A DNA stretch of 62,403 bases, filler included, from Dugesia japonica (lineage: Eukaryota), in NCBI GenBank assembly GCA_001938525.1. It is 6 parts of 6 records of this genome, joined end to end, with 100 filler letters (N's around TTAATTAATTAA, not from the genome) between each part and the next. Parts side by side here need not be neighbours in the genome. Positions count along the whole stretch, not along the records: positions 9,432 to 19,506 come from MQRL01260189.1; 5 more parts are not named here. The stretch is one strand, 5' to 3'. The notes beneath the pieces were generated by a model, which worked only from the letters and a program-made list of their open reading frames with translations, did not search any database and had not been told where the DNA came from. Below, in pieces: positions 1,539-61,854 of the stretch. Numbering within the stretch: the stretch's first letter is position 1; each line of letters starts with the position of its first letter. A program made the translations under genes and the position numbers.

Positions 1539-2299
1539 TTTTTTCTTTTTTCGTCAGTACGCTTATTTTGGCGTGGTCGTCAGTTAAAAGGTTAATGATA
1601 ATTAAAATAACAATCCTTGATTAGTTTGTTAAAAATTAAAAAAATTCTTAATAAGATCAACATAAACACCTTTACCGATTTTTCGCTTACAGCCTATCAT
1701 TTCTTCGTCCACCGCTTCTAGGATCCAAACGAGAAAAATGAGACAGTTGGCCCATCTTTTTTCGTTTGAGCCCCTAAAAAATTCGCATAATTGTTGAGTG
1801 GTGTGTAGTATTCATTATCGCTTGCACACAACTATCATATCATACTCAGTTGGGACATTCCAAAAAACTTGGGTTGAATGTGATTAAGGTAATCTTTTTT
1901 TAGGAATATTGAATTAAAATATATTAAATTTTCTATTTAATTAAACAATGCATTTCAAATTTGGCAAAGTAAATATGGAACGTAAAAATCTGATTTTAGA
2001 CCGTTTATATAATAAAAAAATATGATTATTCGAAAAGTAAATTAGTTAATAGCGTTAAAATTATCATATTTCATCATCAAATTTACAAATCAGCTAGAAT
2101 AAATTATACGTTAAAATTGCTATTAATAATGACACAAAAATGAAACGGAATTTCTCAAAAATAAAATAAATATTTCCCAAAGAAATCAGAATCGAGCTCC
2201 AATAATTCTTTACTCTCGTATATCATTATTTCACCCTCATTTGCTTGTGATTTCTATAGCTTTGTTGCACATAATTCTCTTTCAATTTCCTGTAATTAT

Positions 2300-2545
2300 G
2301 TCGAATTATCTGTGGTCCAAAATTCGTTTTAAAATCTCTGTGATTTTCGCGAACCACTTTTGACAAAATTCCCTTTAAATTCTCTATAGCTTGTCAATAT
2401 CATTTCCGACAACATTCACTTTAAATTTTTAATAATTTTCTCGGATTATTTTCGACCAAAATTTATTTAGCTTCCCGATAATTTTCTCAAACTTATATTG
2501 GACGCAAATTCATTAAGATTTTCGATAATCTTCTCAAATTTATAT
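2300..2545. repeat. Degenerate ~41-bp tandem repeat
   Basis: Recurring units such as ...gaccaaaattt...ccgataattttctcaaacttatatt / gacgcaaattc...tcgataatcttctcaaatttatatt. Confidence 0.5.
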
Positions 2546-2825
2546 TATATTTCGAATTAGAATCTCGGCGAGCCCTACCATCTATGTTATCTTACGCACT
2601 CGGATATAAGTTCAAATATGATTACTAATAATAATAAAATTTACTTTTCAAAATATTTAGTCACTTATCCAATTGATAATACTATTTCTTCTAAATTTTA
2701 TATCTGATTACCACTTGTGATAAAAGATTCTTTCTCTTGTCAAAACTTTGTTTTTAAATCAAAAATAAATTTAACTTTTCTGCATTTTTGTGTTTGCAAT
2801 TTGGTTTTATTATTATCGTCACCGA

Positions 2826-3477
2826 CAGAGCTGAATTTTTCTATACGCTAACTAGGCTTCAGACTAGGGCCTCGAGACTAAGAGGGGCCTACATTCCAAA
2901 TGTTAGCAAAATTAAAATTACACTTTTCTAAAAACAGTGAACACCAAAACACTGGACCGAAAATAAGGAGAAATATCCCACTAAGCATCAGCGCTTTACG
3001 AGGGGACACGCGCCAAACCAGAAGAAAGGCGAGCGCAATGCGTCTATAGTAATAGGTAGGTAGAGCAGTTCCACTACGCGGCTGTGGCAGCTCCGGCAGG
3101 AAGGGGTTCCGGGTCCTGCTCGTTGGGTGGAATCTAGGGAAAGCTCTCTGAAAAAACTCTTCAAAACATTCCACATTGTCGCAAAATATTCAAGTGGCCT
3201 TCCCCAATGTGGAATCAATCTTACGGCTGTTTTTCAGTTTAAAAGTCACTAATTGTACTTGAGAAAGGTCATTTTCAAGACTTTAAAATATCAAAAATCA
3301 ATTAAGAAGCAGAATGACCCAGATGAGGTTGTCTTCATTGAGTATTTTGTGCATCGAAAATGAGACCTTCAGAAAAATTGATCTTGCTGAACTTACAGAA
3401 GACTTTTGTGTAAAAGAGTGTAGAAAGAAATTCTTCTTATCTATTTCGTTTTAAATGTATACTTGAATTAAATCAGT
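2826..3477 (+). mobile_element. hAT (Tip100/ZMYM1-like) deletion derivative with C-terminal dimerisation domain
   Basis: Starts CAGAGCTGAATTT...CTAGGCTTCAGACTAGGGCCTC, a Tip100-like end. 3182-3440 reads AFPNVESILRLFFSLKVTNCT*ERSFSRL*NIKNQLRSRMTQMRLSSLSILCIENE, the hAT dimerisation domain. Confidence 0.85.
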
Positions 3478-5044
3478 NNNNNNNNNNNNNNNNNNNNNNN
3501 NNNNNNNNNNNNNNNNNNNNNNNNNNNNNNNNNNNNNNNNNNTTGTTTGAATAAAGATCCATTTTTGGTTTAGTTAAGGACTTAAAATTCATAATAATTC
3601 CTACTTGTTAGATGAGTTTGAAATACTCATCGGATCACTTATATCAAAACTCGATTACATAGCAAAATTTATTCACAAACAAAACTATAAACATAAATTT
3701 GCTTTTTTCAAACAAATTTAAAAATTCATATTCAATAATGAAAAATATCAAATACCAGCATTTGTTAAATATTTTAATTTTAAAAGTTTATTAATATCAA
3801 ATTTTAAAATACAGTAAAAATATACATTTCATTTAAATATCTTAATACACATTAAAATTTTATATTCAACACACATTCTACCTTTCTCATTCCCTAGTTA
3901 TACACAATTAAATTTTAAAAATTTATTTTATAAATTATTTTTCTTATAATATATTTATTATATTTATTTATTTATTATATTTAATATATTTATCTTATAA
4001 TACTTAAACGTTAAATGTGAATTATTATTAAATAAATTTATCTGAATTGAATTTGGTTTAATCTTCAAAGTATTGAATATTTTTAATTTAGTTTTATAGA
4101 AATTAAAATTTTTATTGTGTATTTTAGTTTCGTAGTCAAAGATCTTCATTATTTGAGTTTTGTTTATTTGTAAATGTTGTGTGTTATTAGTTATTGTTAC
4201 AAGTACTATCTATGATACTGAGAATAAATGTCCAAATAAGTGTTCTCATTACTCGGCCAATCATCGTCATTCATTTTAGAATTTCACCATCTCATTGGTT
4301 GATTTTACTTTTACCTCTACCGATACACATTGGTGCGGGTGATTTATACAGCTCCTTCGGTGTTGCTGTATAAGTAACCTCGTTTTCACTCGATTTTCTG
4401 CGGGTCACCTCATATAGAAAACTGGGATGGAGGAAGATGATTCACGTCGATCACAGTAAATTGGAAGAAATTATCAAAATCAATAATAAAATAAAGAAAA
4501 TTATTAATCAAAATAATTAATTACAAAAAAAAAGAAAAAACTGTTAATTAATTTAGAAATAAATTAAATTAAAATTAGAACAAAATTCGTTTTATACGAA
4601 TAACTTTGCGTCGGGAAGTCACCGGAGCTGGGTTTAAGAAAATTGGGAAAGGATTTGAATTGGGTCATTAGAATTTTGACACTAGAAAATGGTGCCACCA
4701 TCAGAGGGTCGCCAGGAAGATTTTAAGATCTATCCAATAGCATCCTACAATTAAAAAATAAGACAAAGAACAAAAAAACAAGACAACAAAAAACATTTTC
4801 TACAAGTTTAGCAACAACAATTTTACTAAGTATTTCTACTACATTAGAGAAAGAACTTTTCACGGGAGAATATTTAATTTAATACGGTATTTTACACGAG
4901 AAGAAAGATTCTACTAATTAACGAAAGAGATTGAATCGAATCGGACCAATAAACTCAGGTGCAACTAATTTATATTTAAGTGAATCAACCGTTGCAGAAA
5001 TCCTTATTTTAATAGTAAGTGTCGTTGCTGTATTACATTACTGT

Positions 5045-5290
5045 AAAAATAATTTATGCCATTAATAATAAACATGTTTAAAATTTGATTTATGGACTTA
5101 AATTGAAATTATAAGAAATTATCAATAAAAATAATTTATGCCATTAATAGTAACCATGCTTAAGATTCGATTTATGCATTTATATTGAAATTATAAGTAA
5201 TCATCACAACAATAATTTCTGCCATTAATAATAAGAACCGCTTAAAGCTGGACTTTTGCATCTATATTGAAATTACAGGAAATCTTCAAT
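5045..5290. repeat. ~82-bp tandem repeat, 3 units
   Basis: AATAATTTATGCCATTAATA...TTGAAATTAT recurs at ~5048, ~5129 and ~5211. Confidence 0.8.
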
Positions 5291-6600
5291 TAACCGATAA
5301 ATCATAAAGTACATCATCGAAGTTTACGATAATTTGATTTATGTAAATTAACCCAACAATTGTAACCAGATAGTAAGATAAGCAGGCGTGAATTTTAGCA
5401 GGGGCGATCTAGATTTTTTTTGTTTTCCTTCGACAAATTCGACTAGCAACAATTCGATAATATAACCTGAAGAATATAGTCTCTTTATATTTACAATAGA
5501 CAACTTAATAATTACCTCACTCAGAAGTAGATGTGAATAATCTACTAATCAATGATTGCTGAATGAGTCACCCAAGTGTGAATATTGAAGTCAGAATACA
5601 GATTAGTATCTAACCGCTAACCCTATTGAAAAAATCTACATTTTCCGTCGGGGCAAGTCATGATTGTTCATTCAACGAATGCTGCCATTGTCTAGTCCAA
5701 TTTTAACTCTGTTACGTTAGTGGATTTCTTTTCTAGAAATGGAATATTCAATCGTCTCAACATATAACTGCGACCTAAGAATATGCTTCATTCATGATGG
5801 ATCACTTTTTTTATTTCTAAGTCCTAGATCGAATAGAGAAGCCAGGTGATTAAAGTCCCCAATATATTATTCAATCTGCATCCAGGCATAGTGGAACTTT
5901 TAGGTGACAGCGAGTTCATAACGTTGAATGGAAATGTTATAGTTCTCGTGATGGAAATTGAAAAAGTGATTTTCATAATAAGTTGGAGACAGTTGACGAT
6001 GCTACAGATCCTTTGACAGTCAGCTAACACCGTTATAGCCCAAGTTAGCGGTAAGAACTTCATCGACTGTAACATTTAATAAATTGAAATCTTTGTGATT
6101 AGTATCATTATTATAATTAATAAAAAAAAATTTTCTCTATTATTTTATTGATGTTATTAGAGTAGTTACCATTGGCGGAATGATTAGTCCTATTATAAAT
6201 TGTTTTCTATTTTGCGTGATTGATGTTTACCAATAATTCGGTCATCATATCATGACTAAACATTGTGGTTACGGTCACTGTAGGTCTATCTACTACCTCT
6301 GAGATCGCAAATAATATAAACTACGGGAATTACTGCGTGTTTGAAGAATTTTAGAGTACCTCATACTAAGTATTGGATAGTATCACCCCAGAGATTATAA
6401 AGTCTTTTTCTATTATACATTCGTGCTATTCGTGAACATACGGGATTAGCAAGGGTCTTCTGGGTACTTCTTTTTCAGTCAGTGTTATAGTCAGAAGTCG
6501 GTATGGCAAAATAAATGCTTTCCGTACATTCATGTACGAATCATACAAATCTCTTTTGAATCTACCTTATCAATATGTTAATTAAGGAATAGATTTTCCC

Positions 6601-6786
6601 ATGGGTGACATTCTAACAAGAACACTCCGTTGGTTGCGACAAGAGCGGGAGTAATGTCGTAGGAAACAGTTAATCAGACGTCTACTCTTTCCCAATCTCA
6701 TTCCGTCACCAGACGAATTGGACCTCCAGTGCTTCGTAGAATTACTTCTTTTACCTTGTGCCGTTGATATGGACGAGGGAGACTGA
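6601..6786 (+). pseudogene. Element ORF1 homolog, one in-frame stop
   Basis: MGDILTRTLRWLRQERE*CRRKQLIRRLLFPNLIPSPDELDLQCFVELLLLPCAVDMDEGD*. Ungapped 32/59 identity to 14843-15022. Confidence 0.75.
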
Positions 6787-6932
6787 CTACCATATATGAT
6801 TTTTTTTCCAATAAATTGCATTAAGTATAGTTGATGTGTTTACCTCCTTATGTAAAATTGTTAATTTATGTTTGTTTAGTGTAATATAGCCTAAATTATA
6901 ATTATAACTTGTTATAGAGCCAAATCCAACTA

Positions 6933-7316
6933 ATGGAGTATATTTGGGAACGGGTAGTCGATCGAAGAACTCGCCGTATAATCTTTAGGCGCCACCATAA
7001 CCCTTTTAACCGAGATGCAGGCATCTTGGTGGATCGATCGAATCTGCCTCCCGTGGAAGCCGCAGTAACTCGCATCTAGAACTTCGGCGAGAGGTAAAAT
7101 TTTCAACAGTGGAATAGGCCAATGCGAAGCCATGATACACCTTTTAATTTCCAACCTCCGGCTCCACCCCCAGTCATGCAAGCTTTCATCACCAATTTGC
7201 TCTGGGGCGCTAGGGAACCCTCTGGTGTTGCAGATGTTGAAAACACCGTTCCTACTACTATCGTTCAACTTTTTACTAACTGATCCGGCCCAGTGGATGC
7301 ATTGGATCTCATGTAA
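6933..7316 (+). pseudogene. Element ORF2 homolog, three in-frame stops
   Basis: MEYIWERVVDRRTRRIIFRRHHNPFNRDAGILVDRSNL... has 22/38 identity to the N-terminus of 15167-15361. Confidence 0.75.
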
Positions 7317-8113
7317 TTATTATATAAAATAAATTTACCCTGTTTGACTCATTCTAGCGTTTAATAAATTCGGAATAATAGGGAAAACATGAGACGGGAG
7401 GTCAACCGCTTTATGCTAAATGGCTAACTTAGGGGCATTAGGCTAAATTCTTGAACGAGTTCCCCGAAGGCTGTTGTTCCCCAGCCACCCGTTGTTTCGA
7501 TATGTCTGTGTGATGTCAACAGAACGATTGACACTTGCGATGGAAATGTTAGATCCTAGTGGGCTCAGATACCTAACAAGAAATTATCTCCAAATTAATT
7601 AATAGGTGTTTAGGTAAAACGTTATTTTATTTATTATAAATAATATAAATAAAGATAAATCAATTTTTGGGACTCGCTAATTTTAAAATTTATTTTAGGA
7701 AAATTTAGGATACCTGTTAACAAATATGTCTAACAGTATCTTTCAATTAATATTTTAATAACTGTTTTGTTTACTAGTCAGTAACTGACTTTTGAAGTAG
7801 TGTTACTGAATTATTATATAAAATAATCAAACTAGTCTTTAACAGACTTCAAAAAAATAATTATCAATTTTAAAAATAAAAACTAAAATTGATATTATTC
7901 AAGAATTGTAATCCCAGTTATATCAACTGGATTTACAATTTTCATTATTTAAAAATAAAAATTACTTATTCAAATAATTTCTGCAAATAATAGTACATAC
8001 TTAAGTATGTAAGTATAATAAGTCATTAATCTGTGTTTGGAAAAAGTAAAAAGGGGATATACTTTGACTTTAGCTAGCTCAAAATGCTGGATGCTTTGNA
8101 ATATGCACAATAT

Positions 8114-8350
8114 TTTAGCTCAATAGAATTGGAAAAATCATAATATCAAGGATCTCAATTTTGTAATTGCAGCAGCGCCAGGTAAGTTCCAGTAAATGAT
8201 GAATAAAGTAAACGGAAAAATAAAGGAGCAATGGTTTACCTAGATTATATACTCATATTTACCAAGGGAGCAACACTATGAAATAGTCAATAAAGTATTG
8301 ACAGAAATTAAGAATCTCGATATAAGAGTTAACCTGAAGAGATGTCAATT
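8114..8350 (+). mobile_element. Gypsy reverse transcriptase fragment (second copy of the 44120-44430 family)
   Basis: Shares long nucleotide stretches (aattgcagcagc.ccaggta.gttccag...atgatgaataaagtaa...ggagcaacactatgaaata) with 44120-44430. Confidence 0.85.
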
Positions 8351-9331
8351 NNNNNNNNNNNNNNNNNNNNNNNNNNNNNNNNNNNNNNNNNNNNNNNNNN
8401 NNNNNNNNNNNNNNNNNNNNNNNNNNNNNNNNNNNNNNNNNNNNNNNNNNNNNNNNNNNNNNNNNNNNNNNNNNNNNNNNNNNNNNNNNNNNNNNNNNNN
8501 NNNNNNNNNNNNNNNNATTGAAAAGTCAATCATATTTAATGAAACATAATTACAGACGATGCATTGGTAAATTTAAAAATAGTTATTAAATTAATAATTG
8601 TAACGAAAACATAATTAAGACGGTTGTCAAATATTTAATTTATTGCAACATATTATAATTTTAACAAAAATGAATTAACATCACTTTTTTCACATATTCG
8701 AAAATCAATATGTATTAATTGATTTTTAAATATTTCTAAGGTGGACTTAAAATAAAAAAGAAATTTCTATCAATAATTTTATATACACAAAAGCTTTTTA
8801 TAACAGTTATTATAAAATATTCTTCTTAAATATATTAACCATTTCTAAAATTTGTAAACTGTAAACTTAATATATTTCCACACATTAGAACACGAACCGT
8901 TCTATTATTTAAAATAAATTTTTTAGACTGAATATAGAATTTAATTTATATATAATAAACAATAACAATGAACAATAAGATAAAAAATTTATTTTTAAAT
9001 ATATTAGATGTAACAACAACCATTTTTAAATTAATGATTAATTGTTTTCATTTCGGCTTAGCTTGACTACCTTAACNNNNNNNNNNNNNNNNNNNNNNNN
9101 NNNNNNNNNNNNNNNNNNNNNNNNNNNNNNNNNNNNNNNNNNNNNNNNNNNNNNNNNNNNNNNNNNNNNNTAATCAGATTTTATTTTGTAATCAAATCTC
9201 ATAGGATTGACAGATAAAATTCATCATTTTAATACTGATTTCAAATTAGCTCAAAGATTCCATTTCATTAATATATCTAAAATAAAACATAATAAAAATA
9301 TATATTCATTCCATTATGAATTTTAAAATTA

Positions 9332-9430
9332 NNNNNNNNNNNNNNNNNNNNNNNNNNNNNNNNNNNNNNNNNNNNTTAATTAATTAANNNNNNNNNNNNN
9401 NNNNNNNNNNNNNNNNNNNNNNNNNNNNNN
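9332..9430. other. Artificial scaffold linker N44-TTAATTAATTAA-N44 (12-mer also at 19551, 27995, 41925, 50452)
   Basis: An identical 12-mer with stops in all six frames is centred in ~100-nt N spacers five times. Confidence 0.9.
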
Positions 9431-9759
9431 NAAATAATAAATAAATAATAAATAAATAATAAATAAATAATAAATAAATAATTTCACAGGCACTTTAAAT
9501 GAATCGCGAAACTTCTGACTTCCAGGTTAGCCTACAATTTATTATAGTGACGAAATTCTTATTTATTACAAATGAAATTCTGGTATTATTCGAGGAAGGG
9601 AATGTAAAGAGATAGTTGATTTTGGTATTGACAAGTTTCATGACCCACTAATTTGTTTGTGTGATTGCTTAACGAAACATTGATTTAAAATGTTCATATT
9701 CTTCACAGGAAGTGTTGAGTATTGATAGTTCAATTTTGTATACTTTTATGAAATGTGCA

Positions 9760-10135
9760 TCAAATTCAGCCGTATCTGTAGATCTTGTTGATGCTATGAA
9801 TTTTACTACCAAATTTCTAAATTAGTTGATTCCATCTGACATGACCTCATACACATTGTTGCTTAAGAGTGGAACTATTATCATTCTGTTTATAAATTTG
9901 AATCCAAAGAATGGTTAATACAACGGCATAAAATTGGTGGTTGGATATCTTTCTCGAAATGCAATCATTACACTAATTATTTCTTAGTGTGAACGGGGTA
10001 ATGTAGCCCTAGTTCCTTGAATTAATCTTGAACCCTTCGACACTACCTTGCCATTTGCCTTGCGACAACGCCAATTTTAGGTGACTCTGGCGTTATGCAT
10101 TACCATGAACAAATTCCAATGTCAAACATATGACA
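9760..10135 (+). mobile_element. Helitron Pif1-like helicase remnant
   Basis: FLN*LIPSDMTSYTLLLKSGTIIILFINLNPKNG*YNGIKLVV...DTTLPFALRQRQF*VTLALCITMNKFQCQT matches the Helitron LLRNLNP..GLCNGTRL...RRQFPVRLAFAMTINKSQGQT motifs. Confidence 0.9.
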
Positions 10136-10999
10136 TGTTTTAATTGACATAGAGCTTTCAGTAACGGTGTGGTTTTCCTTCCATAAAATTACATTACCTC
10201 ATCCGACATGTATAGTCCAACGGAGCTAATCCATCAAGGTCCGTTAGCATCCAATTGAGTCCATTCATAGTTGAACTTATCGATCAGCTTGCGTAGTTTT
10301 AACTAGACTAACATCGATTAAGGTATGTGCATTTCTGGTAGCGGTGCTTCCGTCTGTTCACATCTGGTCATAAATTGAACACCGCTACAATTGTTTAAAA
10401 ACAATCAATCATTATCGACAATAATTAACTAGTCCAAGATCCACAAAATGGTAAGGAATTCCATCGCAACTGTTACTTAGTCAATACATGACATATTTTA
10501 TATTATTTAGAACATATTAGGCATCTTTGTCACATTTTTTACCATATTAATGGAACCTTTAAACATCATAGACCATATAATAATAAAACATTTTAATAGA
10601 TTTACCTAAATTTCAATTTATATTAAATTTATATTAAATTAACTTAAAGAAAAATCTTTTTAAAAAATTTCATATCAAAAATTTAACATTGGAAAAATTT
10701 AAAATATATAAAAAAATTAATAAACTCACTATTTTTAATATCATCTTGTAGTGTAAAGTGAAAATACTGATTTGCATTTATAACAAAATATTTAAATAGT
10801 TAAGAATAATTTTCTGTAAAATATTTATTTGATTTTTTTAACTATGTTATGTATAAATCATCTTTGAACTGTATAGTGTGATTATTGACGGTAGAATAAG
10901 CTATTTTAATTTTTACTGCTTTATATGTCACGCATTTCAGATTTTAATAATTTAAATGTTACTATGTTAGAGCACTAGATCAGATTACATAAATTAGTT

Positions 11000-11420
11000 G
11001 GTGGAATCACTTGCAATTTTGCTCATAGAAATTTCCTTGTATGATATTATTCTCATAACCTTTAACCACATATATGACTGCATTTTTTGTAGTATTGATT
11101 TTTGTTATTCGAAACAACTCATCACTCCAAATACTATCAAAATACTTGATGGAGATACAATTATTTTTGATATTCTGACCTGGTCACCAGTTTTATATTT
11201 TGGTTTCTTTATGGCTTTACATGGTTTCCATAAAAGTCATATTTTTAATATGGTAGCGAGTGGGGTTTAAATTTTAAAATTTTATTAAATGTTTACCTTC
11301 ACACTTGATTAAACGTTTAACAACGTAATCGTGCTAATCATACAATTCTGCATCAGAATGCAAAAGTTCTATTATCATAGCACCTTGATCTTGACCGATT
11401 TTATCGGTCTTTTTTCTTTA
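11000..11420 (-). mobile_element. Polinton/Maverick-type (RVE) integrase C-terminal remnant
   Basis: Minus strand reads KKPKYKTGDQVRISK...WSDELFRITKINTTKNAVIYVVKGYENNIIQGNFYEQ. This resembles the KFKVGD.VRIS...NWS.E.F.I...Y..KD..GE.I.G.FYEQEL tail. Confidence 0.7.
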
Positions 11421-14400
11421 TTTTAAGAATTATACAGAAACAAAGCACTTTACAATAGTAATCGTATAAATTAATTCGGTGGCAATGTATAGGGAATTTT
11501 TAATTCTCTATCAAAAATTATAAGATTCGATTTTAAAAATTTAAAAAATAGCGGCTATAAGCCATTATTAAATTTAAATCTTCGATAACCTTTAACCCTT
11601 ACATCATATAGTAAATTTAAAACAACTGTAATGTATTATCTATATATTTGGGAGTCCAAAGATATCAAGTTTGTCATCTTAGCTCCTTTTAAACTTGAAT
11701 TTTACTGATTTCTAAAATATAAAAATTTATAAAATTCCTGTATCTTAAATCTCGATTTTTATAAGAAAGAAAGCATTATACTATACAAGTTCATGAGACA
11801 ATCCTATCTCATATTTTCATTTTCTATATTATACGTCTGTTTCAAATTCAAAAGGTCTTGTAGTGCGCCACTCACTATCTACCTACTCTGTAGTGAATGC
11901 CGTTTTTATACCATGAAAAAAGCGTTTTTTGTTACTATTTTTTTATGCAATGTATAAGTATTTTTTAATTTTCCTTCGAATGGTACATAGTACAAAGCTA
12001 TTTAAAAATAATGGCTGTAGGTTGTTTTTTATCTTTAAAATTTTAAAAACATTTTACCTGCTTGCCCGATTGAAAATTTAGCCTACAATTCGTCTTTATA
12101 TTACGCATCAAATGATACCATAACATTAAAAAATAATTTTAATTTAAAAATAAAATAATTTTAAAAAAAAATAATTGAAAAAATTAAAACAAAATATTTT
12201 TTTACTGATATGTATTGACCAATTAGATTGTAGGATACAATATCATTGAAATTTTTCTACTGTTTTTGTCGACCAATATGATCCCTGGATACTGTATTGC
12301 TTATTTTTAGTAACATGCTTCCCACCAATTATATTGCAGGATATTGTATAACTGAAATTCTATATCAGTGTGCTAGCGGGGTAAAAGGGGGATACAGCGC
12401 CCAACTATCTTTCTACTTTGATTTGTCGGGGTGAAACACCCGAATATAAAAATAATAAAACATGCTTCTCAAAATAAAGAAATTTTGTAAAATTAATTAG
12501 AGAAATTATGATTCCCCATTAAAAAACAACAAAATTGTCGCTAAAAATAATAATTAATTAACAAGAAAAAATTAATTAATTTTTTGCAAAAAAGAGGAAT
12601 AATTGACTGAAAATCAGTTTTTGTAAGATATCTTCACTCTAGAAGATCATAAATAATCCTAGTAAGAAAATCTGAAGAAAAGTTATGGGGCAATAGAATT
12701 TTGCAACAAGAAAACTTAACCAACATCAGAAGGTTCAAGAAAAGGGTTTGAAAATTCAGCCAATCACAGACCAGAAAAGAAACATGAAACAAAGATGCGA
12801 AAAACACGAGGTGGCTTAAAAATATATACCAATGGAAGATCAAAGTCTTAGGAAAAATCAGAAAATTGGTGCCAGCACAAATAAGAATTGAGAAATTCAA
12901 AACAAAAATAGACGGCCAATGGTAAGAGAGTCGAGTTGCGAAGAAAATCCTATAAAAGCCCCCCAAAAAAACTTAAAATTTCACCGATAAAAAATCTATT
13001 TCTTACAGTTTAACAATCTACGTGAAATTCGTGATAACGAAACTCTTAAATTACTTCAAGGTCAATAGTCAAATTATTTGGATCTTATCGAGATTACTCC
13101 GGGAAAGATTATTAAGTGGAATAAAAGAAGTTGGTCTTCACAGAGAATCGAGGATTAATTAAAAGAAAAATTATTTGTTCTATCCCCTTTGCAAACCATT
13201 TATCTAGTAAGTATAAATTTAATTTTTATTATAATACCGTTACATTATTATTATGCAATAGTTAATATAAAATATTAGAAATGTGATCTTACATTATTAT
13301 TTTTCATATTTATAAATCATAACTGAAATAGACATTTTTTTCCAATTCATGCACCGCCCCACCAAATCTTATCCCAGTAATCTGACAAACCCACGGAAAC
13401 CACAAGTTGAAAAAACTTTTTCAGATAATGTAAATTTTCCCTACCACGCCACAAGTGATTGTTTACACTGGCATCAGTACTGTTTCCGTTCTTTCGTCGA
13501 GAAGTTGTAGACTCATTGGAAGATGCATGAAATTTGAAATTTGCATCCTATACTAGAATTATAGCGAGATTTCACCAGCAAATAAAGATATAATCTATAA
13601 TCACCGAGTCACTTCGGAGTATGCAAACAATACACTAAAAAAAGTTTAAGAAGTGAATAGTTACAATCAAATTCTTACCTGATAATAAATTGCTTAATTT
13701 TTATTGGATCCCTATAATTTAAGAAAATTAAATTAAATACATAAAAATTAAAAAATATAAAAATTTTTAATAATAAAGAACTTACAATATTAAGCATTGT
13801 AGCTCTTAAACTTATGATAGTGTATAACATCGAAATATCGCATTGAATTAACGAGTTGTCTAATAGATATCACATAAATTACTCACGCAATATCACTATT
13901 TACCTGTTAAGTAATCAGCAGTCATGCCATTACACACCGGTCAGCGCACACAGAACTACTAGAGAGAGTTACTGATAACCTCGGATTTTCTTGATGAGTT
14001 ACGCTAACAAGTTTTTACCAACTGTTTTAGTTTAACAAAGCATGCGAGTTCTTCACTGATCTCAATTTTAGTTTATATATAACAGATTAGCGATTTTGCT
14101 GACAAATAAAAATTCAGAGACTCGGCGAATACAATGAACCAGGGAATTGGATTGCCATTAGATATGATGATATCAAATTTCGAAGGTTACTTTGATTATG
14201 AGGGGAACTCTACTAAAACGCAGACGCTCATATATTTTTAAGGGCTCAGATATGGGATCTTTACTCTTCAGGGTTTGAAATATTAAGAAATATAGTGTCG
14301 GGAATTTTGCTGGCAAATTTCGTCAGAGTTTCATGGTTCTCCTTAATGTAACGTACATAAATTTTCAGCTAAACTTGTTCTCGTACAGCCCTACTAATAC

Positions 14401-14842
14401 TAAATGCGGCATTGAGGTAGAACCGATTCGGGTATGCACTGTAATATTTTTATTATTATTATTATTTTTGCCGTTATCATTATTGTCTTTGCTGATTGTT
14501 ATTGTTGTTAATATTAATAACCTCATGAATTAATTATCCATTATGGCAAATTGGTAACTTTACTATTAGAGTTCCCAGTTTTATTATTATTGAAATTAAT
14601 ATGTTTACTGTCGGCATTATTACATAATTATGATAAGATCCTTATGATCCCTTGTAGAATTATACAGTGTAATGTTATTACCATTGATGTCTCTGTGATG
14701 ATAGTTAATAAAAGTACTACCCCTGAGATGATATTACGACAGGAGCTGTGCCAGTAACGAGTTTTAATGCAACAACCGGGTAAATTAATTCGCGAACCAT
14801 GATCCGTGACGTTGACGAATGTTTATAATTTACTTCAGGTAG

Positions 14843-15022
14843 ATGTCTCGAATTCTGAAGGACACATTGAATTTCATACGTCAGAAAATGAATCGAGCAC
14901 GCCAAAAGAAGTTAATCGGTCATCTTCTCTTCTCCAATCTCGTTCTTTCCCCGGATGAATTAGATCTGAGATGTTTTAGGGAATTATACCCCATTCCGTG
15001 TGAGGTCGATTTAGATAATTGA
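14843..15022 (+). CDS. Element ORF1, intact 59-aa unknown protein
   Basis: MSRILKDTLNFIRQKMNRARQKKLIGHLLFSNLVLSPDELDLRCFRELYPIPCEVDLDN*, just under the ORF-track cutoff. Conserved with 6601-6786. Confidence 0.65.
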   Translation: MSRILKDTLNFIRQKMNRARQKKLIGHLLFSNLVLSPDELDLRCFRELYPIPCEVDLDN

Positions 15023-15166
15023 TTTGTGTCATTTATGGTTAAATAAATTTCTGTTTCAACTGTTGTGTTATTTATATGATTTATCTTCTAATTTTATTCT
15101 TTTTATAATGATAAGATTCGTACTTGAACATTGATTTGTTGGCATTGCCATTAATTTCAGTTTAGT

Positions 15167-15361
15167 ATGGAATATAAATGGAAAATATTGCTAGACCGTC
15201 GGACAGGCCGAACGGTTTTCAAGCGATACAAGAACCCCTACGATAGAAACGCTGGAGTTCTTGTAGATGGATCGAATCTGAATACTGAGGAAGCAGAGGA
15301 GGAAAGGCACTGGGACACCACTGATTGCCAGGCCTGTTATGATTGGTCCGGTCCCAGGTGA
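15167..15361 (+). CDS. Element ORF2, unknown protein (64 aa, possibly truncated by premature stop)
   Basis: MEYKWKILLDRRTGRTVFKRYKNPYDRNAGVLVDGSNL... is homologous to 6933-7316. Confidence 0.65.
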   Translation: MEYKWKILLDRRTGRTVFKRYKNPYDRNAGVLVDGSNLNTEEAEEERHWDTTDCQACYDWSGPR

Positions 15362-15750
15362 GCTCGAGAGGTTTACCTTGCTGTTAACATTACCTCCCCG
15401 GATAGCAATGGTCAGTTGACTACTACAAGAGAGTGGCGTGAGGGCCCATCTGTGATGTTGATAACTACTCCACACTTGCGCCCTTTTTTCTGGGCTTGGT
15501 GTGTTCATTGATAATTTGTTGGACAGACTCAAATGCTCTGAAAATTAATTAAGTGTTTTTTAGGTAGTAGTTAATAAAACATTTGGTATAACTTTGTTTT
15601 CCTGTTTTCGTAATTATTAACGATTTTTTCTTTTACAGTGCATTTCTTACTTAACCGATTATAATAATTTTGAATAGTTAAATTGACTGTAATGATTGTG
15701 AGTAATTTTTACTTTTCTATTACTTTTCACTGCCAAGAATCCTGTTACCT

Positions 15751-16091
15751 AATAGTCTCCGTCGCTGTCAACGACTTATTCAGAAATTACTACTTGAGTA
15801 TCATGTTAGACGGCAGAATGAGCGGACGTTATTACGGCATCTGACTCAGAGAAATCGCTTAATTAAAAAGCTTGACGTCATTGTCAAAAAACAGGAGATT
15901 TGGCAGAGCAGACTAACCAATTACTCACCCATAAGGTTGAATTCCTAGAGCAATACATTGCTGACTTTTCTAGTCGACTTGAGCAAGAGACATGGACGCG
16001 CTGGAATAGAGACGATGATGAAGCCGCTTTTGGTTTTATGTTTGGAGAGCCTACCCAGTGGTTAGACCCGGGTGCTATGGATTATATGTAA
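15751..16091 (+). pseudogene. Element ORF3, frameshifted coiled-coil-like protein
   Basis: NSLRRCQRLIQKLLLEYHVRRQNERTLLRHLTQRNRLIKKLDVIVKK, then a frameshift to LAEQTNQLLTHKVEFLEQYIADFSSRLEQE...GAMDYM*. The tail resembles DALDLM* in copy A. Confidence 0.45.
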
Positions 16092-17504
16092 TTTAGAACA
16101 AAATAAACGTTAATGGTAATATATATTTTTTATGATATTAAATGGGAAAATAACGAACCCAAAAATAAAGGTATACGAGGGTGTACTTCAAATAAATGAT
16201 GGAAGTCAACCACTCTATACTGAAGACCTAATAAGGGACGCTTGAAGGAGGTCTCCTGAAGGCTGTTTTTCCCTAGTCATATTTTTCAATAACACCAACT
16301 CAGATGGAACCCCAACAGATTTTTGTTATTATGTATTTCTATCTGTGATGTTGCAGATTTTGTTTTTTATCTTTAAAGTTTTACTTTCTTTTTCTTATCT
16401 CAAGGTTGTGTGGTTATTTTTTTCGAACTTTAAAGTTCTTATATAGTGGCTTGGTAATTGAAAGACTTGTCTATTGATTGTCTCTTTATGTAAAATTGTT
16501 CATCTTTTTGATTTGATTTTTTCTTTAAATCCTTTTTCTTTAGTTAATATCGAATAGTCATTTGAATTTTTTGATTGTTCTTCGTTAAACACATTTATTC
16601 TATTTATCACGTGATATCACTATATCTTTTCGGGAATTAAATTTTGAATTTTTGAATAATTTTGTTGATTTCTGTCCAAATACCATTTTTTCGAGTTTTA
16701 TAATTAAGTTTTTCTAGAAAATTCATTTCTTTTATTTAAACTTGTCCTGTATGTAAAATAATTCTATTTGATTTTTGTGTTGATGTAATGAGACACTTGT
16801 TAGTCCTAACATTCACTAATATTTAAATATTTAAGACGAATTTGATCCATAAACGTTTATTCAAATTAAAAAGATAAAAAAAATTATTAAAACCAATTTA
16901 CTTACTTTCTTTTCAATTTAAATTAATTAATTTAAAAATTATCATAATTTCAACATTTCTTACTTTTAGGCAAATAAGGATAAATCTAATAACGGATCAA
17001 CCGGGAAGATGATGGCGGCTCTTGTCTCGCTATATCCGGATTTAGAAAAGGTTATATGACGATAAGGAAAGACTACTCGCACGAATATTAGGATGGTAGT
17101 ATCAGAAAGTAAAGAAGAAATGGTTAAAAACAATTTTGTATCTAAAAATCAAAATGAATAAGAGAAAAATAATTGTAAAAATATCAAATACTAAAAAGGA
17201 TAAATTAAATAAATAAAATTTTATTGGATCATTTTGATTAAATTTAAATTAAACTCAAATTTAAATTTTATTCCAAATTTAAATCTTAAATTATAATTAA
17301 ATAAAGACTGTTTAAATAAATCAATCTAAATCATTACGAATAATTTTAAAAGGCATAATAGGTTATTTATTATAAATATGAGAATTTTTGATTTTTTTAG
17401 AAATGAAACGATCAGTGCAAACACTGATTTTACAATATTTCAAAAAACAAAAGCATAGTAGATAGCATTGTAGATTTAGAAAGTATGAAACCAGGGAAGC
17501 ACTT

Positions 17505-18324
17505 TTGTCGGAAGAAACATCTTCTTTCCCACCATCACTTTTGCCATCGTTATCAAAATTATTATCGTCATCTTATGCTTCAAGGGACAATGATCATTTT
17601 ATCAATAGAAAGGATGGTCTAGACGACATCAAAAAACTCTTAATTTACCGTAACCGAAAATTAACTGATTTCGAACTTAGATTTGAGCACGTATTTGTGA
17701 GGAAATTTAAATTAAAATTTCAAAAAAAATCTCAACCTCTTTCATTGATCCTCACAACCAGAAACGTAGCATTAAAGAAAGGAGGTATATCCAACATAAT
17801 CATCTTTTAAATCATGAAGTATATTCCGATATTTATAAAGGTATCTTCTGCAAATATTGTTCACTATTTGATGATTTTTGTGGTACTTATAGAAAAATAA
17901 GTGGAAATGTTTGTAACAAAACCTTTCATAAAGTTTGCAAAAATATTTGGAAAGGATGGTGAATTTCAAACACATGAAAATTATCTTTATCACAGAAGCT
18001 CTGTAATAATAATAATCAAAGATAATCGCGAACGGTAAATACTTATTTTTAAAACTATTCTTCTCATTTACTTTTAGTTTTCATTACAATAGTATTTAAG
18101 TAATTTTATTGTTATATACGAATATTATAGGTATAAAGTTGTATGCTAATAGTATGTAACTGTTATTATAAGCGCTTTATGCATAAATGTAATATTTATT
18201 ATAAATATCTTTCTTGAAAATAAACATTTCCGATGTATTAATTAAAATTTCTATTAAAATAAAAATATTTTTATAAATTTTTTATATTGTCCCCCTCACG
18301 AAAAATTCCTGGATCCATCTCTGG
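17505..18324 (+). mobile_element. hAT (ZMYM1-like) N-terminal TTF zinc-finger remnant
   Basis: YSDIYKGIFCKYCSLF...FVTKPFIKFAKIFGKDGEFQTHENYLYH. Ends with hAT-like CCTGGATCCATCTCTG. Confidence 0.7.
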
Positions 18325-19606
18325 ATAAATCTATAATAGTTTTATCATAAAAAATTATCAAAACTTGCAAATTCACAATTTATATTGCAGATCATCTTTA
18401 ATTAAATTTAAATCTTCATTAATAATAATTAATTTACAAATCAATGAATGTCCTTGCTTACATTTACTCAAGTACGAACCAATTGTAATGTCGTCTTCGT
18501 AAAAAAACCCAATCACATGATTACAAATCACATTGGCAATAAATATATTAGTCATAAAAAATCTATTGAAAATTTCCAAATTGGGATTTTACTGTTTCAT
18601 TGTAGCTAAATTTACACTTTCTCAAAATAAGTAATTCATGTTGAAGCCTAATTATAATTTTTCTGAAATAATTTTTGTGATTTTATTCAAAATCAAGCCA
18701 ACAATAAAACAGATTTGAACTTTATTTACACGTAAATTGTGAAGAATTTTAAATGAATGAAAATAATCTCAACTAAATAGAATCAATAATTTAGGATTAA
18801 CCATTTTTGATTAAAATTTGTATATTTAAATTGAGAAAATGTGATAATCTATTTTTAGTACATAATTTGGCTGATTTATTTACGAGTGATATTAATTTCT
18901 CTCAATTTGTTTAGGAACAAATTTGCACTTAAATAAGTGGAACAATTTAAGAATAAATTGTAAAACATTTCATAAAATCAAGTTAAAATTTTTCAGGAAT
19001 TTTATACTAATTCCCATTTAAATATAGAAACTTCATTTTTATTGTTATATTAATTCAACTAATATTATTCAATTATATTAACTTAAATTAAACAGTACGT
19101 TTTCGAGTTTTAAAGTTCATATTGTTCCGTTCTCGATATCATTCATTTTCGTGTTTGACCCTCATGCTGCGAGCGACGGATTTCTTTCGCTGTATCACTA
19201 CAAAAGGCATAAAAATCATTAACATGACATTAAACTTAAAATTCGAGTCACAGTTAACATTTTTTTAAATTATAAAATAGCCCAAAGTCATTAATAACTG
19301 ACTTTATTAAAAATGAACATTCTAAATTATAGCAGCAGGTCAATCAGCTAATTGTTGAGATGCTTTGGGGATNGTTGCCAAAGCAAATCAGCAATTGCGT
19401 GAGTTTAGTAGTCTTCAAATATATTCTTAAAAAATCCGGTTGTATTGTGTTAAACTTAGATAATTTTTCTTATATAACCTTAATAAATTTATTATATATA
19501 TTATATNNNNNNNNNNNNNNNNNNNNNNNNNNNNNNNNNNNNNNNNNNNNTTAATTAATTAANNNNNNNNNNNNNNNNNNNNNNNNNNNNNNNNNNNNNN
19601 NNNNNN

Positions 19607-19647
<41 letters not shown>

Positions 19648-21773
19648 TGTATGCAAAAATGATTAAAATTAACTAAATAGTAGATTGTAGGTGTCAGCTC
19701 CAGACCACAGTTTTCAGACACGCCGAGCAAAGTTATTATTTGACACCCCACCCGTTCCCAACTTTTTAAAATTAACAAATGCATTTTAATAGTATAGCCC
19801 TGGCTAGTAGCTAATTACAGAAAATTTCAACCAAAAACATTAGTATTTCTTAAATTTGAGAAATATCATAATGTAGAACTTTTATTTAAAAAATACAAAA
19901 AAGAAATCGATGTTTTGTGGGTTTATGATATCGTAACCATAGTTTTAATGATTTGATAATAAAATTAATCGAAACACAAAGTGGTGTCAAGGGAAAAGCA
20001 AACTTTTCTTCGTATGCATTTAATTTACTTAATTTCATAGATAGAATTTTGCACCCTGAGCGATTGCCTGGTCAGCTACCCTCTTAATTTGGCACTAGTA
20101 GGTGTGCAACAGAACCAAAGAAAATGCTGATTACATTTGAGGTGTTGAAATAAAATATAAATATGCCCGATAAATACAAAATGTGGACTTTTATCCTTGT
20201 GTTTTTATTAATGTGAGCTATTGTCAGAATTGTTATGAATTTTTATACATTCCTTATAAACAATTGATTAGTCTTTTTGGTACTAATTTCACGAATGCTT
20301 CAATATAAACAATTAGAAATGGAAGTAAAGTGTTCAAANTTTTTTTAATGAGTAGTGAGGAGTGATTACTGCAAGATAATTTTATGCATAACTGGATTTA
20401 AATCCTAAAATTCTATATGCATGCACCTTTGAATTAAGTCGCTAGTATTGATGAGAAAATGAAAAGAAGAATGATCAGTTAAATTCTATGATTTTGTTGT
20501 ATTGTCATTATATTCTGGTAGATTAACAATTTTTAAAATTAAATGCTGAATTTAAAGCTAGACAAAACTCAAATTTAATAGTAACACCACCACATCACTA
20601 TAAATGACAAGAAACAATAAATATAATGATAAAATAATGAAAAAAATCATACCATTTATTGTTAATAAGTCACCTTCTTTGCATTGGAAAATATTCATTA
20701 TATTTAATTGAAGAACCCTTTTTCTCATTGTATGAAAAAACCGTTTTGTATTTGTAAATTGAATATCAATTGCTGTAAATTGATCAGCTAACAAAATTCC
20801 TGAGAAAAATAGTTATATCACACTTTCAAAGAACAACTTTATTTTTAACCTTCTTTTTGAAGGCAATCCCTAAAAATAATTTTGCATATTTTTTTCCAAG
20901 CCAACGGTGGATAGTAACACGTTTTTTTAATATTAATTTTGCTAATGTTGCTTTGTGAATTTTGAGAGAGAACATTGACTACTAGAAAGATACTTGTGTT
21001 GGAAATATAGAAACTCTATAAAAAAAACGTTATACATATCAAATATAATTCTCGTGAAAATATTTTTAAATTTCATGATTAATAGTAGAACTAGAAACTA
21101 CTGAAAATAAACCAAACAAATTTATGTTAATTTCCAAATTCGAAGTTTACATTTTATTATCAAAAGATTTGTACTTTTATTTTTAGGCGAGTCTGAATTT
21201 AAAAGATTTTAAATATCCATAAATTTATTAATAAAATAAAAGAGAAATATTTAGATTTGTTTTCAAACAGAGCGAAATAATCTGAAATTCAACTTCATTT
21301 TTTAAGATAAATTTTTATAATTATTAAATTAAATAATTTCTGATTTTATTTAAAAACAAATATTGCAAAATTTAAATTTATTCTCAATTTAATAAACAAT
21401 TTAAAATTTAAAGAAATATTTTTATCATATTGTCTTCAACAATTTAATAATTTTTTTTATAATTTTTAAAATTTAATTTCTTTTCACACTTTTAAAGTTA
21501 CTTTATTTTAAAATTTTTAAAATCGCAGTTAAAATCTCAAAAACTCGAGCTCTTCTTACAATTACAATGGTGAGTTACTTTGTCTTTATGAAGAAACATT
21601 CCGTGGTTTCCAATATTTAAGTTTATTTAATTTCTTAGATTGAATTTTAAGTTTTCCTAAATAGAGAAGTCAAATAAAAGATAAAAACCATCAAAAGACA
21701 ATATAGATCAAATCAAAAAGTGTAATAGCATCCCAATAAATTGCATCAAGAAAATAAAGGTCCTTTTTGAAAG

Positions 21774-23838: not shown

Positions 23839-24084
23839 ATATATATCACAAATAATATTAGGTTTTCCTAAATAATCTAAAATAAATTAATACTATGTCA
23901 AGTAAAATAAAACATCTTACTTGATATTGTTAAATAGTGAAATAATATGAAATTATTCCATTCAGTCCATATTTATTTAATATGTTTAAACAAAATTATT
24001 TAATAAAAAATAATTGTCGAAAATATTTTAATAAATTAATTAATTTAATTTAACAAAAATCAATTTTTAAAAACATTCATTAAA

Positions 24085-26900
24085 ACTGTTTAATTTGATT
24101 CGTATTAATTTAAGCAGATAAAATTTGATTCATGTTAAATTTAAATTGATCGATTTTTTTTAATATTAATTATAAGCTGCTAAACCTTGATTCATATTAA
24201 TTTCAAGCTGTTAAATTTGATTTATATTAATTTCAAACTGATAAATTTTAATTGGTATTAATTTTAAACTTTATAATTTTGATTCTTATGAATTTTATGC
24301 TGGTAAAATTTGATTCTTATTAAATTGAAACAAATTAATTCTTTCCTTAAAATCTTATGAATTTTAAGGTTTTTTGATGAAAGTTGTATTTTAAATGACG
24401 AATTATATACTTTCTATGTAGTTTTCTCTAATTTTCTATGAAGACTCCTGTATTAACCATGATGATACCTATATATTATATGATGAAGTGCCTATGTTTT
24501 GGTTGAAACTATAATTTCCAATGACAAAGTGTTTATTTTCAACTATGAACCTATATTTTAAATGTTGACTTAGAAATTTATTGTGTTGTTTTAGAATTTC
24601 ATGTGATGAAATGTAAATTTAATGACTTCTATATAACTTTAGCATGATGAATAATAATTTTTTTGTACTGATTTAGAAATTTAATGTGTCTACTTTGAAT
24701 TTGATTGTGTTATTGTGTTGGGTATTTCTACTCAACAAGTTATTTTATGGTTCGTTTACTTTGTAACTATTGTTAGATAACATGTTCGTGAGTTTACGGT
24801 AGTTGAATTTACCTTGTGTATGTTTATACGATATTATATAAATGATATTTTATCCAAATATTGATTTGGTGATATATTGTAATTACATTATATAAATAAA
24901 TGAAAAATATACCCTTTAAAAAATATTTTATTTCTGATGTATAAAAATATGAATACAATTCAGTAATCCCAAGACCTTATTAGCAATAATTTAGATCAAG
25001 TTAACGATGCCGCCCAGAGAGGTTGGATGTTAACTGATTAAAAGTTACTAAAAAATTGAGTGAAATCAGTCAGTATTTATACTGATTTTACTCGCATGCA
25101 AAATATCCTTAACCAATGAAAACAAAACACCTTTACACAATAAATAAAATTTTTCTTGACAAATAAATAAAATTTCCTAGTTTAGCTAATTTAATTTTCT
25201 ACAGTTAATAATATTTTCACAAAAAAATCGATTTATTATTTCCGATTAGAAATATTTTTTGTAAGAAATTAACACACTGCATATAATAATTTCAAAAAAA
25301 TAAATATACACCAATCAAAATTTCTTTACAATAACTTTATACATAATTCACAAAATGAAATAAATAATGGATCAATTATAAAGTCTAAAAACATAATTAA
25401 CAAAATGAAATAAATAGATCGATTATAAAGTCTAAAGACAAATTAAATGTCTGTTTAAAGGATACATTTGAATGTTAATACTAAGGGTATTTTGATATTT
25501 GTAGATACTGAGTATTGATACGGAGGGTAATTTGATAATAATTAGTTGATGATTTGATTATGTGGGTGTATGTTTTTGTGTTTGTGATGTCCTCGATCTC
25601 AACAATTGAATGAAAATTTGTGAGATAGAATGTAATTTTAGTGTTATAGATTATAACATTTTATGCGTTAAAACTTAGAGTTTTACTTGTTTAGTGTTAA
25701 TTTTTATGGGCTATATTAGGCTTTTGTGAGATGGATTAAAATTTTAAAGCGGTGACTTAGAAATTGCAATGTGATGAACTATATTTTAGTGTGACAAATT
25801 ATTATTATGTGACAAGAATTATTATTTTGAATGATAGATTGTAATTCTAGTGTGATCGATTATACTTTTATGTGATGAATTATAATTTCATGTGTTGACT
25901 TAGAAATTTTGTGTGATTGAATATACTTTTAATGTGATGTATTATAGTTTTTATGCGTTGACTTAGAAAGTTTACATGTTGTTTTATAATTTTTATTTGT
26001 TAGTGTAGAAATTTATGTAAATGTTTGTAAGTTTTACATTACCTCTAAAAATCACTTATAAAACCATAGTAATGCTTAAAATTATATTCACAAATACTTA
26101 TTTTCTCTATGTTATTAAATTCTTCCCGGACTATATTAACAATAATGTCCTCCGAGCTATATTAATGTTAAAACCAGTGAATAGTGAGAGAGACTAATTG
26201 ATATTGAAAGAATGCCAGTGAGTAGTGAAAGAAAGCTAGTAAGTTATTGAGAAGAGTGAAAAGTTCGATAAAATCAGCAACTGCAAGGAACGTCAAGTGC
26301 AGAGTGGGTAGATACTAGTAAAGAGTGTGAGGAAAATTTCTAAGTCAACACATAAAATTATAATTTATCACATAAAAGTCTAATCGATCACACTAGAATT
26401 ACAATCTATCATTCCAAATTCTAACAAATTACATTAAAATTATAATCAATCACACAAAATTTTTATTTCATTATACAAAATTTAAGTCATCTCATGAAAT
26501 TAAAGCTCAAGGCATATAACTGTATAGACGTCATTAATAATTTTCAAAGATTGTAAAGAATTGTTTGAAATTATCATAGATTACATAAAAGTAATCAAAC
26601 TCTTTCAAAATTACATAGACGTCATTAAAAAGTCTGAAAAATGCATAATAGTTAATACAGATTTACTAGAAGTCAATTAAAGTTTTCAAACATTACATAG
26701 AAGTCAATAAAAATTTAAGTTCATAACATTAAATTACATTCCATCAAACAAAGAATTATAACGCAACATGTAAACATTTTAACTCATCATATAAAACATA
26801 ATATATTCCACTAAAACTACATTCAATCACATTAAAACTGTAATCCATTACATAGAAATTAAATTTCATTACACAAAATTTTAAGTCAACACATTTTAAA
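24085..26900. repeat. Foldback-like region of short-period repeats in inverted arms
   Basis: ~29-bp repeats at 24085-24330 and ~22-bp TGACTTAGAAATTT-type repeats. 25830-25910 is a close reverse complement of 26335-26415. Confidence 0.65.
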
Positions 26901-27028: not shown

Positions 27029-27950
27029 CCCTTAACCGCCCAGTAGTGTCTCAGAGACACTGTTTACATTTCGTTTTCATAGTAAATCTAAAGTTTTGAA
27101 TGTATACAAAGTAAACTTCATATAATTTATCACTATAGTCTTGTCAACCAAAATTACTAATCGAAGTTATTCAAATCAAATTATTACTTTGGCAATTATT
27201 AAAAGGTCATAAATGTGACACAAAGACCNNNNNNNNNNNGATAGACACAACATATAGTGTTATAAGGTTAACAGTAATAAAATAACCTTGGTGATGTAAG
27301 TTACTTACGCAAATAACTATAAATATAATTTCAATAAATTCAAATAACAGAATAATGTGGATTTCACAGAATATTGGGATTTAATGTTTGGTCGCCCTTT
27401 TTTCGTGCTACAATGGGTAAAATATATTTGCGGATATCCAACGTTTTTTAAGATTTAATAATAAAGCTACAAGGTCTCAAAGAAGATCAAAAGATAAATT
27501 GGCGCCTATCAGAGATCTTTGGACCGATATCAATATTAATCTTCAAAAGTTCTATTTACCTGGTGAAAACCTAGCGATTGACGAACAACTTATTCCGTTC
27601 AAAAGCTGAGTATCATTTAAACAATACTTGCCATCTAAGCCTGACAATTATGGTATGAAGGTATGGTAGATTTGCGATAGTGAAATAAGTTATCCTCTTG
27701 CTGGTTTACCATACCTTGGAAAACTTGAAAAGAATAAGACAGAAAATTTAGCTCATCATGTTGTACTTACATTATGTGAACCATATTATGGAACGCATAG
27801 AAATATTACATTTGATAACTATTTTACAAGCCTTGAGGTGGCACAATCACTACTTCATAATGGTCTGACAATGGTTGGTACTCTTAGAAAAAATAAACGC
27901 TGTATTCCAGACAATTTTCAGCCAATTAGAGGACAGAATATTGAAACTAA
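27029..27950 (+). mobile_element. piggyBac transposon remnant (PGBD-like transposase pseudogene)
   Basis: TTAA|CCCT left end. Reads DKLAPIRDLW...AIDEQLIPFKS*VSFKQYLPSKPDNYGMKVW...ITFDNYFTSL...VGTLRKNK. Confidence 0.92.

Positions 27951-58999: not shown

Positions 59000-61854
<2,855 letters not shown>

Follow-up and report, generated by a model that had tools for sequence, protein, structure and literature searches.

Does the 59-codon open frame at positions 14843-15022 (plus strand) of a Dugesia japonica sequence encode a protein, and if so, does this protein belong to the planarian or to an element that moves within its genome? We addressed this question in a 62,403-nt stretch of assembly GCA_001938525.1 that consists of six joined parts (hereafter the window; GC content about 27%). 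An earlier inspection of the sequence (the sequence-only reading) had described the frame, here called ORF1, as a microprotein with a diverged second copy at 6601-6786 (plus strand).

The protein sequence of ORF1 is under constraint

The open frame is present and intact in copy A (14843-15022, 59 aa), and the reported ungapped, Met-anchored match to copy B (61 codons) holds with 32 of 59 identical residues, the aligned part of B being 6601-6777. The DELDL codons also read in both copies as they had been quoted. The two sequences differ at 77 bases, which are distributed 22/17/38 over codon positions 1, 2, and 3 (binomial p 0.0026 for the third-position excess), and 19 codons are synonymously different, in agreement with the claimed silent-site divergence. 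Silent sites are saturated (pS 0.86), and pN is 0.31. When the same substitutions were placed randomly, 17.3 ± 2.6 identities were obtained, and none of 20,000 draws reached 32. In a six-frame comparison of A and B, the plus frame was best. Constraint from an opposite-strand frame, the alternative that the sequence-only reading had itself raised, does not explain the pattern, as the best reverse frame has 25/58 identities and two stops in copy A. The coding constraint on ORF1 is thus real. Copy B is nevertheless broken by an in-frame TAA at codon 18 (6652-6654), which the earlier reading did not mention.

A profile HMM built from the two copies and searched against 1.84 billion representatives returned a single match, P0005, a protein of 60 aa (E 4e-9) that is the sole member of a Logan cluster without a name. 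P0005 aligns end to end with the plus frame of ORF1, beginning at the same Met and stopping one codon later. Conservation of start and stop was therefore seen in part: the start is the same in all three sequences, whereas the stop shifts by one to two codons (59, 60, and 61 aa). Twenty-two columns are invariant in P0005, A, and B, among them PDELDL, F45, E47, L48, and V55-D56-x-D58. The two cysteines that had been called conserved are not among the constant features of the family, as P0005 has neither of them, with Leu and Trp in their places. In addition, the codon of Cys53 carries a residue-changing difference in 15 contigs of the DNA run X1 (251 of 262 depth) and in three contigs of run X8. 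Among the 40 differences listed for these reads, nine lie in ORF1, of which four are silent, five are residue-changing, and none creates a stop. The ORF1 stop has a 1-base gap in three X1 contigs, and codons 14-17 contain a compensated gap pair in two.

The division into a basic N-terminal and an acidic C-terminal half was borne out, with a charge of +7 in residues 1-30 and -5 in the remainder of copy A, and the same holds for all three sequences (+6 to +8 in residues 1-30, -5 to -8 after). The N-terminus is amphipathic in all three, and a helix is predicted for residues 3-29. The AlphaFold2 model of ORF1 (pLDDT 68, pTM 0.39) places a second helix at residues 37-48. No transmembrane segment was found in the three sequences, whose best 19-residue hydropathy values are 0.91, 1.24, and 0.41, and an N-terminal MGxxxS/T is present only in one of them (copy B). 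In both respects ORF1 differs from the sORF2/FAST-like fusogens, which have a single transmembrane helix.

Searches for a family returned little else. No match to ORF1 was found among near lengths in a set of 5.8 billion sequences, where the ORF2 alignment and the 3' part of ORF3 (see below) were likewise without match, nor in a sequence search of the PDB. The scanned frames of the unit described below had no Pfam or PHROGs match above cut-off, viral and metagenome contigs contained no relative of the frames, and the ESM Atlas gave nothing usable for ORF1 and values below 0.9 for ORF3. With the ORF1 model, Foldseek found nothing at E 0.001 in viral structures and the PDB, and the best match of the VIA fold search (Z 5.3) consisted of generic helices. 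The codon pattern, the null test, and the profile and Pfam searches hence support the earlier view of a short protein under purifying selection without a known family.

Two further frames accompany ORF1

A second frame, ORF2, follows in copy A at 15167-15361 (plus strand; 64 aa to a stop at 15359-61, after which the same frame reopens to 15511) and in copy B at 6933-7079 (plus strand; 48 aa to the first stop). The copies share 25 of 48 residues, their differences are distributed 20/11/30 over the codon positions, only 1 of 20,000 null draws gave as many identities, and the plus frame has the most identities among the frames compared. All five X1 contigs that cover the ORF2 stop codon of copy A differ from A there. 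ORF1 and ORF2 are unrelated to each other. A third frame, ORF3, is found in copy A at 15706-16091 (plus strand), where it is split over two frames (15706-15948 and 15876-16091) and followed by an AATAAA 11 nt past the stop; it is absent from copy B.

DUF3213 and phrog_26521 were considered as families for ORF2 and rejected as weak matches, and the comparison to PDB sequences gave E 0.04 to a hypothetical protein. The ORF2 model has three strands and a helix (pLDDT 55), and chromo and chromoshadow domains lead its list of structure matches (top Z 4.2, rmsd 3.2, 52 aligned residues). The N-terminal EY...DRR of ORF2 resembles the first strand of the chromodomain (PF00385), but the KW.G aromatic core of this domain is absent, and no PF00385 match was found for ORF2 of A or B up to E 10 with filters that drop weak matches. 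We also built a chromodomain profile from 31 loci fetched by a short motif, of which 16 were kept after the removal of duplicates and of broken and unrelated frames; six of these 16 were scanned against Pfam, and all six are PF00385. ORF2 of copy B scored 3.9 bits against this profile, a value reached by 6 of 1000 shuffles and the best of 400 window frames, and ORF2 of copy A scored -1.9, with 952 of 1000 shuffles as high. A profile-profile comparison gave a probability of 4% over 16 columns, restricted to the first strand; none of 200 column shuffles was as high, with the best nearly tied (15.17 vs 15.59). A chromodomain-like ORF2 is therefore a doubtful lead, picked after the structure list was known. 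As a side aspect, several of the prokaryote genome records among these loci (L011-L031) contain eukaryote-type chromodomain frames on short contigs, probably by bin contamination.

The frames lie in a repeated unit with mobile-element ends

ORF1 to ORF3 of copy A are enclosed in a unit of 3,894 bp at 12424-16317 (plus strand; unit A, a candidate solo LTR) that has TG...CA ends with an 8/9 terminal inverted match. The scan for ends also revealed the flanking target-site duplication GATT at 12420-12423 and 16318-16321. Such pairs of TG...CA ends and duplication are common in this AT-rich window (66 at 0.3-8 kb spacing); when boxes of the searched size were slid, 4 of 375 positions contained one. 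The 4-bp duplication is seen at one insertion only, that of unit A. Copy B belongs to an older, diverged unit B at 4396-7525 (plus strand), whose ends are approximate and were placed by alignment to A; GATT stands outside both ends, and the B termini have decayed and are not TG...CA. The two units have four blocks in common, in the same order, namely a 5' non-coding block, ORF1, ORF2, and a 3' non-coding block. The 5' block (12495-12809, plus strand; B 4459-4783) is 63% identical over 329 columns and includes an aligned CCAAT at 12760, and the 3' block was aligned at 16164-16291 (plus strand; B 7363-7502).

Several short signals surround the frames. A pattern scan found a candidate splice donor, AGTAAGT, at 13206-13212 (plus strand; 5014 in B), and an AG lies within 15 bases of the ATG of each frame, a weak signal that is frequent by chance. 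An AATAAA follows ORF1 at 15042-15047 (plus strand), 20 nt past the stop in A and 24 nt past it in B. In total, AATAAA occurs at most 25 bases past the stop in three of five cases compared with a background of 8%, the two exceptions being the long ORF2 frames (+62, +45). Neither a direct repeat between the ends of unit A nor a long inverted repeat was found, and these ends have no TGG primer site or purine tract next to them. Among the stop-to-stop frames of at least 45 aa in the unit there is no integrase or polymerase frame, and capsid, helicase, and polymerase frames are all absent from it. Rfam, applied to window positions 1-20000, found no ribozyme and one chance snoRNA match outside the units. 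The folding of the terminal blocks as RNA was no better than that of shuffles, apart from one 33-nt hairpin in B (4/200).

Both units also have features of their own. Immediately outside the left end of unit A, a 36-bp direct repeat (81%) occupies 12218-12253 and 12324-12359, and upstream of ORF1, 14134-14322 (plus strand) contains protein-like short frames, possibly of a decayed gene, with no match in B. Downstream of unit A, exon-like frames at 16970-18080 (one of 114 codons at 17466-17810), without Pfam match, possibly belong to a host gene beside the insertion. Unit B contains three 82-bp tandem copies at 5044-5290 that are absent from A, and at 5824-6075 (minus strand) an 83-aa ATG frame with hydrophobic stretches, for which we found no counterpart in A and no Pfam match.

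The abundance of related copies was assessed with the reads of 4 out of 24 listed runs, aligned to 14530-16360 at 80% likeness. In the DNA run X1, 1,465 of 8,500,430 contig records aligned, 76 of them at 99% likeness or more, 153 and 388 in the two classes below, and 848 at less than 90%. The summed depth relative to the flank was 103 over ORF1, 53 over the first part of ORF2, and on average 260 over ORF3, the highest value, none of which is a copy number. It reached 155 times the flank over the 3' block (16080-16327), compared with 1.3 over 14530-14777, 9 and 11 over the spacers, and 1 beyond 16327. This shows that many diverged copies exist, and because the depth is high over the frames and the 3' block and low over the spacers, their likeness is concentrated in the former. 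At the right end of unit A, the X1 depth is 211 in the final bin within the unit and 7.8 past 16327, and this boundary coincides with the end that the TG...CA scan had placed independently. In run X8, which is RNA only by guess, 87 contigs aligned, two of which have a loose end that reaches a stretch like the last bases of unit A and then departs from the A flank (two letters).

Transcripts were scarce in the two poly(A)/cDNA runs, which were read in part. Only 20 of 13,591,480 raw reads in X11 and 4 of 10,544,396 in X10 aligned, all of them less than 90% alike, so that no read at or above 90% likeness points to expression of the unit A copy in these runs. Neither a splice joint nor a pile of read ends was seen in the 24 reads over 14530-16360. 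Planarian poly(A) libraries have been described as carrying much less transposon RNA than ribodepleted ones (extracts of PMC6884822).

The remainder of the window contains a variety of genes and repeats, and an exact look-up of window proteins in the protein collection gave no match. A decayed Gypsy gag-protease-RT fragment lies at 42758-44498 (plus strand), with a TGG primer-site-like word at 42758, and an RT piece 81% like this fragment lies at 8159-8350 (plus strand), about 630 bp past unit B and across one N. A piggyBac-type transposase fragment (PF13843, E 1e-14) was found at 27670-27948 (plus strand). The frame-shifted fragments at 59451-60501 (minus strand), two pieces of which were scanned without a Pfam match, resemble a hAT/SCAND3-type transposase. 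Long inverted repeats (83-87%) connect 44577-45074 with 47557-47861 and 48428-49052, and near-identical direct duplicates across gaps (47127-47947/47998-48818 and 45093-45501/45552-45958) are probably assembly overlaps. Arrays of 31-bp and 20-21-bp units at 24022-26900, which are partly inverted (25824-25910 with 26333-26419, 95%), resemble a foldback or minisatellite-bearing element. A multi-exon WD40 gene at 40158-41928 (minus strand) has Notchless/Rsa4 as its best natural matches. A single-frame gene for a five-finger C2H2 protein at 28711-30093 (plus strand) is close to the Schmidtea Glass sequence of PMC6399963 supplement 3; judged by eye, about 20 of the first 92 residues differ, and the portion of the fingers shown there is unchanged. 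On this basis the host is a dugesiid planarian whose sequence lies close to that of Schmidtea without matching it fully.

A probable accessory gene of a planarian LTR element

Integrases of the retroviral type characteristically produce TG...CA ends that have a short inverted match and are flanked by a 4-bp duplication. A single unit that has such ends and is free of internal repeats is most simply a solo LTR, and the lack of a direct repeat, primer site, or purine tract at the ends is as expected of one. The picture of a free-standing microprotein is not supported. ORF1 sits in an element that is present in many copies and whose mobile-element ends are flanked by a target-site duplication, the second copy of the frame within the window carries a stop, the cysteine pair is no constant of the family, and two RNA runs yielded no read at least 90% alike. 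ORF1 is very probably a protein gene of a mobile element, and the element itself is probably a Gypsy LTR. Taken together, our main reading, to which we assign a probability of about 0.6, is that ORF1 resides in the solo LTR of a planarian Ty3/Gypsy element, possibly a Burro-like one, and likely codes for a soluble accessory protein. No gag, pol, or full-length copy is joined to the units within the window, and the Gypsy fragments at 42990-44498 and 8159-8350 do not have these ends alongside.

Unit A would be what remained after the two LTRs of a full-length element had recombined. AATAAA signals near the stops and AGs near the ATGs suggest separate, spliced, and internally polyadenylated mRNAs, from which each frame would be translated. 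Saturated silent sites together with a nonsense codon in B are compatible with a course in which selection acted while separate lineages replicated and the inserted copies then decayed, with the stop in ORF1 of B and the breaks in ORF2 and ORF3 of A as the marks of this decay.

The alternative that survives best, which we nevertheless consider unlikely, is a complete non-autonomous DNA element that is moved in trans by a Gypsy-type integrase/transposase (Ginger- or Polinton-like) and carries ORF1 to ORF3 as cargo, with a separate poly(A) signal for each gene. Ginger elements have TGT...ACA ends with a 4-bp duplication, so that the ends and duplication of unit A fit them too, and compact frames followed by AATAAA, many copies, and the missing tie to gag-pol also agree with such an element. 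However, the terminal inverted repeats of Ginger and Polinton elements measure tens to hundreds of bases, whereas the inverted match is only 9 bases here, with no long inverted repeat, and non-autonomous elements would seldom retain several constrained frames over such diverged lineages.

Quite improbable is a family of host genes for microproteins, with bicistronic or alternatively spliced transcripts, that has grown by duplication and whose apparent ends are due to chance. The purifying selection and the kept start would be expected of it, the two copies lie 8 kb apart in the window in the same orientation with a conserved upstream block, and the window contains 66 end/duplication pairs anyway. 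But the depth boundary coincides with the right end that the scan had placed, and a total of 1,465 aligned contigs, together with the stop in ORF1 of B and the breaks in ORF2 and ORF3 of A, does not describe a low-copy family with intact paralogues. The missing RNA reads at 90% likeness or more in two runs and the single relative in 1.84 billion representatives also argue against it. Even less probable is an origin from a DNA virus, or an element resembling one, that integrated and left behind small genes with individual poly(A) signals. Small frames, AT-rich spacers, and AATAAA would suit it, and endogenous densovirus sequences have been reported from flatworms (PMC13055364, in extracts), but capsid, helicase, and polymerase frames, relatives in viral contigs, and viral fold matches are all lacking, and the precise TG...CA ends with their duplication point to an integrase. 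Finally, chance similarity or constraint from an opposite-strand frame is practically negligible, as the 85-codon open minus-strand frame over ORF1 in copy B and the minus frames over ORF2 in both copies are outweighed by stops in the minus frames over ORF1 of copy A, by the plus frames having the most identities (32/59 and 25/48) with most differences at third positions, and by 0 and 1 of 20,000 null draws and an outside protein that fits the plus frame end to end, which together refute chance as the source of the likeness in ORF1 and ORF2.

With respect to the function of an LTR-encoded ORF1, a nuclear regulatory role is possible; we propose it tentatively from the composition, the modest model, and analogy, with no sequence or fold match behind it. 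ORF1 could act in the nucleus to raise or protect the expression of its own element. Its basic amphipathic helix might contact nucleic acid or chromatin, and its acidic-hydrophobic PDELDL.xF.EL motif might bind a host partner. Small viral transactivators have acidic-hydrophobic activation motifs. According to excerpts of PMC8532177, SMEDWI-2 silencing in planarians has LTR elements as its main direct targets, and these wake in differentiation and lose H3K9me3 on knock-down. Such silencing would supply the motive for a protein of this kind.

Gypsy elements with small accessory ORFs and complex retroviruses with genes in their LTRs are already known. MMTV Sag and HIV Nef are encoded in U3, and MMTV Sag is a singly spliced accessory protein. 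The likeness consists of an accessory protein in the terminal repeat and a spliced mRNA, the latter inferred here. In contrast to the one gene per LTR of complex retroviruses, two or three are found here, in a probable invertebrate Gypsy-type element with no sequence likeness to them. Of the small accessory frames in Gypsy elements, those of Drosophila 412/MDG1 are comparable by their description in the accessible text of bioRxiv 2025.03.14.642691: the two small ORFs, sORF1 and sORF2, have low dN/dS and are separated by a poly(A) site, and sORF1 is nuclear. The giant Ty3/Gypsy elements Burro/GYPSM1 share with the units, again by description, the dugesiid host family, many copies, accessory ORFs, and decayed copies with stops and frameshifts. 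Burro is further characterised by a giant polyprotein that includes MATH, BIR, BCL2, and env-like parts. Burro elements occur in thousands of copies and exceed 30 kb in total with an internal region of up to 25 kb, from which LTRs of several kb follow; the accessible part of their description mentions accessory ORFs for the internal region but not for the LTR (PMC6431247). In the literature on planarian LTRs, we found no description of ORFs inside them or of this family, for which prior annotation (Grohme 2018, Repbase) is possible, and we found no report of an invertebrate LTR that holds two or three small frames under constraint within its termini and whose encoded proteins match no library. 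The searched files among the supplements of PMC11410931 contained no match.

A bolder and rather unlikely extension would be that the LTR of a giant planarian retrotransposon encodes three small proteins, each from an mRNA spliced and polyadenylated on its own, which act against host silencing, with ORF1 as a basic-acidic transactivator, ORF2 as a degenerate chromodomain decoy for H3K9-methyl/HP1, and ORF3 as a coiled-coil partner. If this were true, hundreds of solo LTRs would scatter these genes genome-wide, some of them intact and able to fire when PIWI control lapses in differentiation. As a caution for planarian genomes in general, a conserved short ORF in a repeat can satisfy a dN/dS test and still not be a host gene. 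With small proteins encoded in their LTRs, these elements would possess an accessory layer like that of retroviruses, and the proteins would be concrete, testable candidates for transposon counter-defence.
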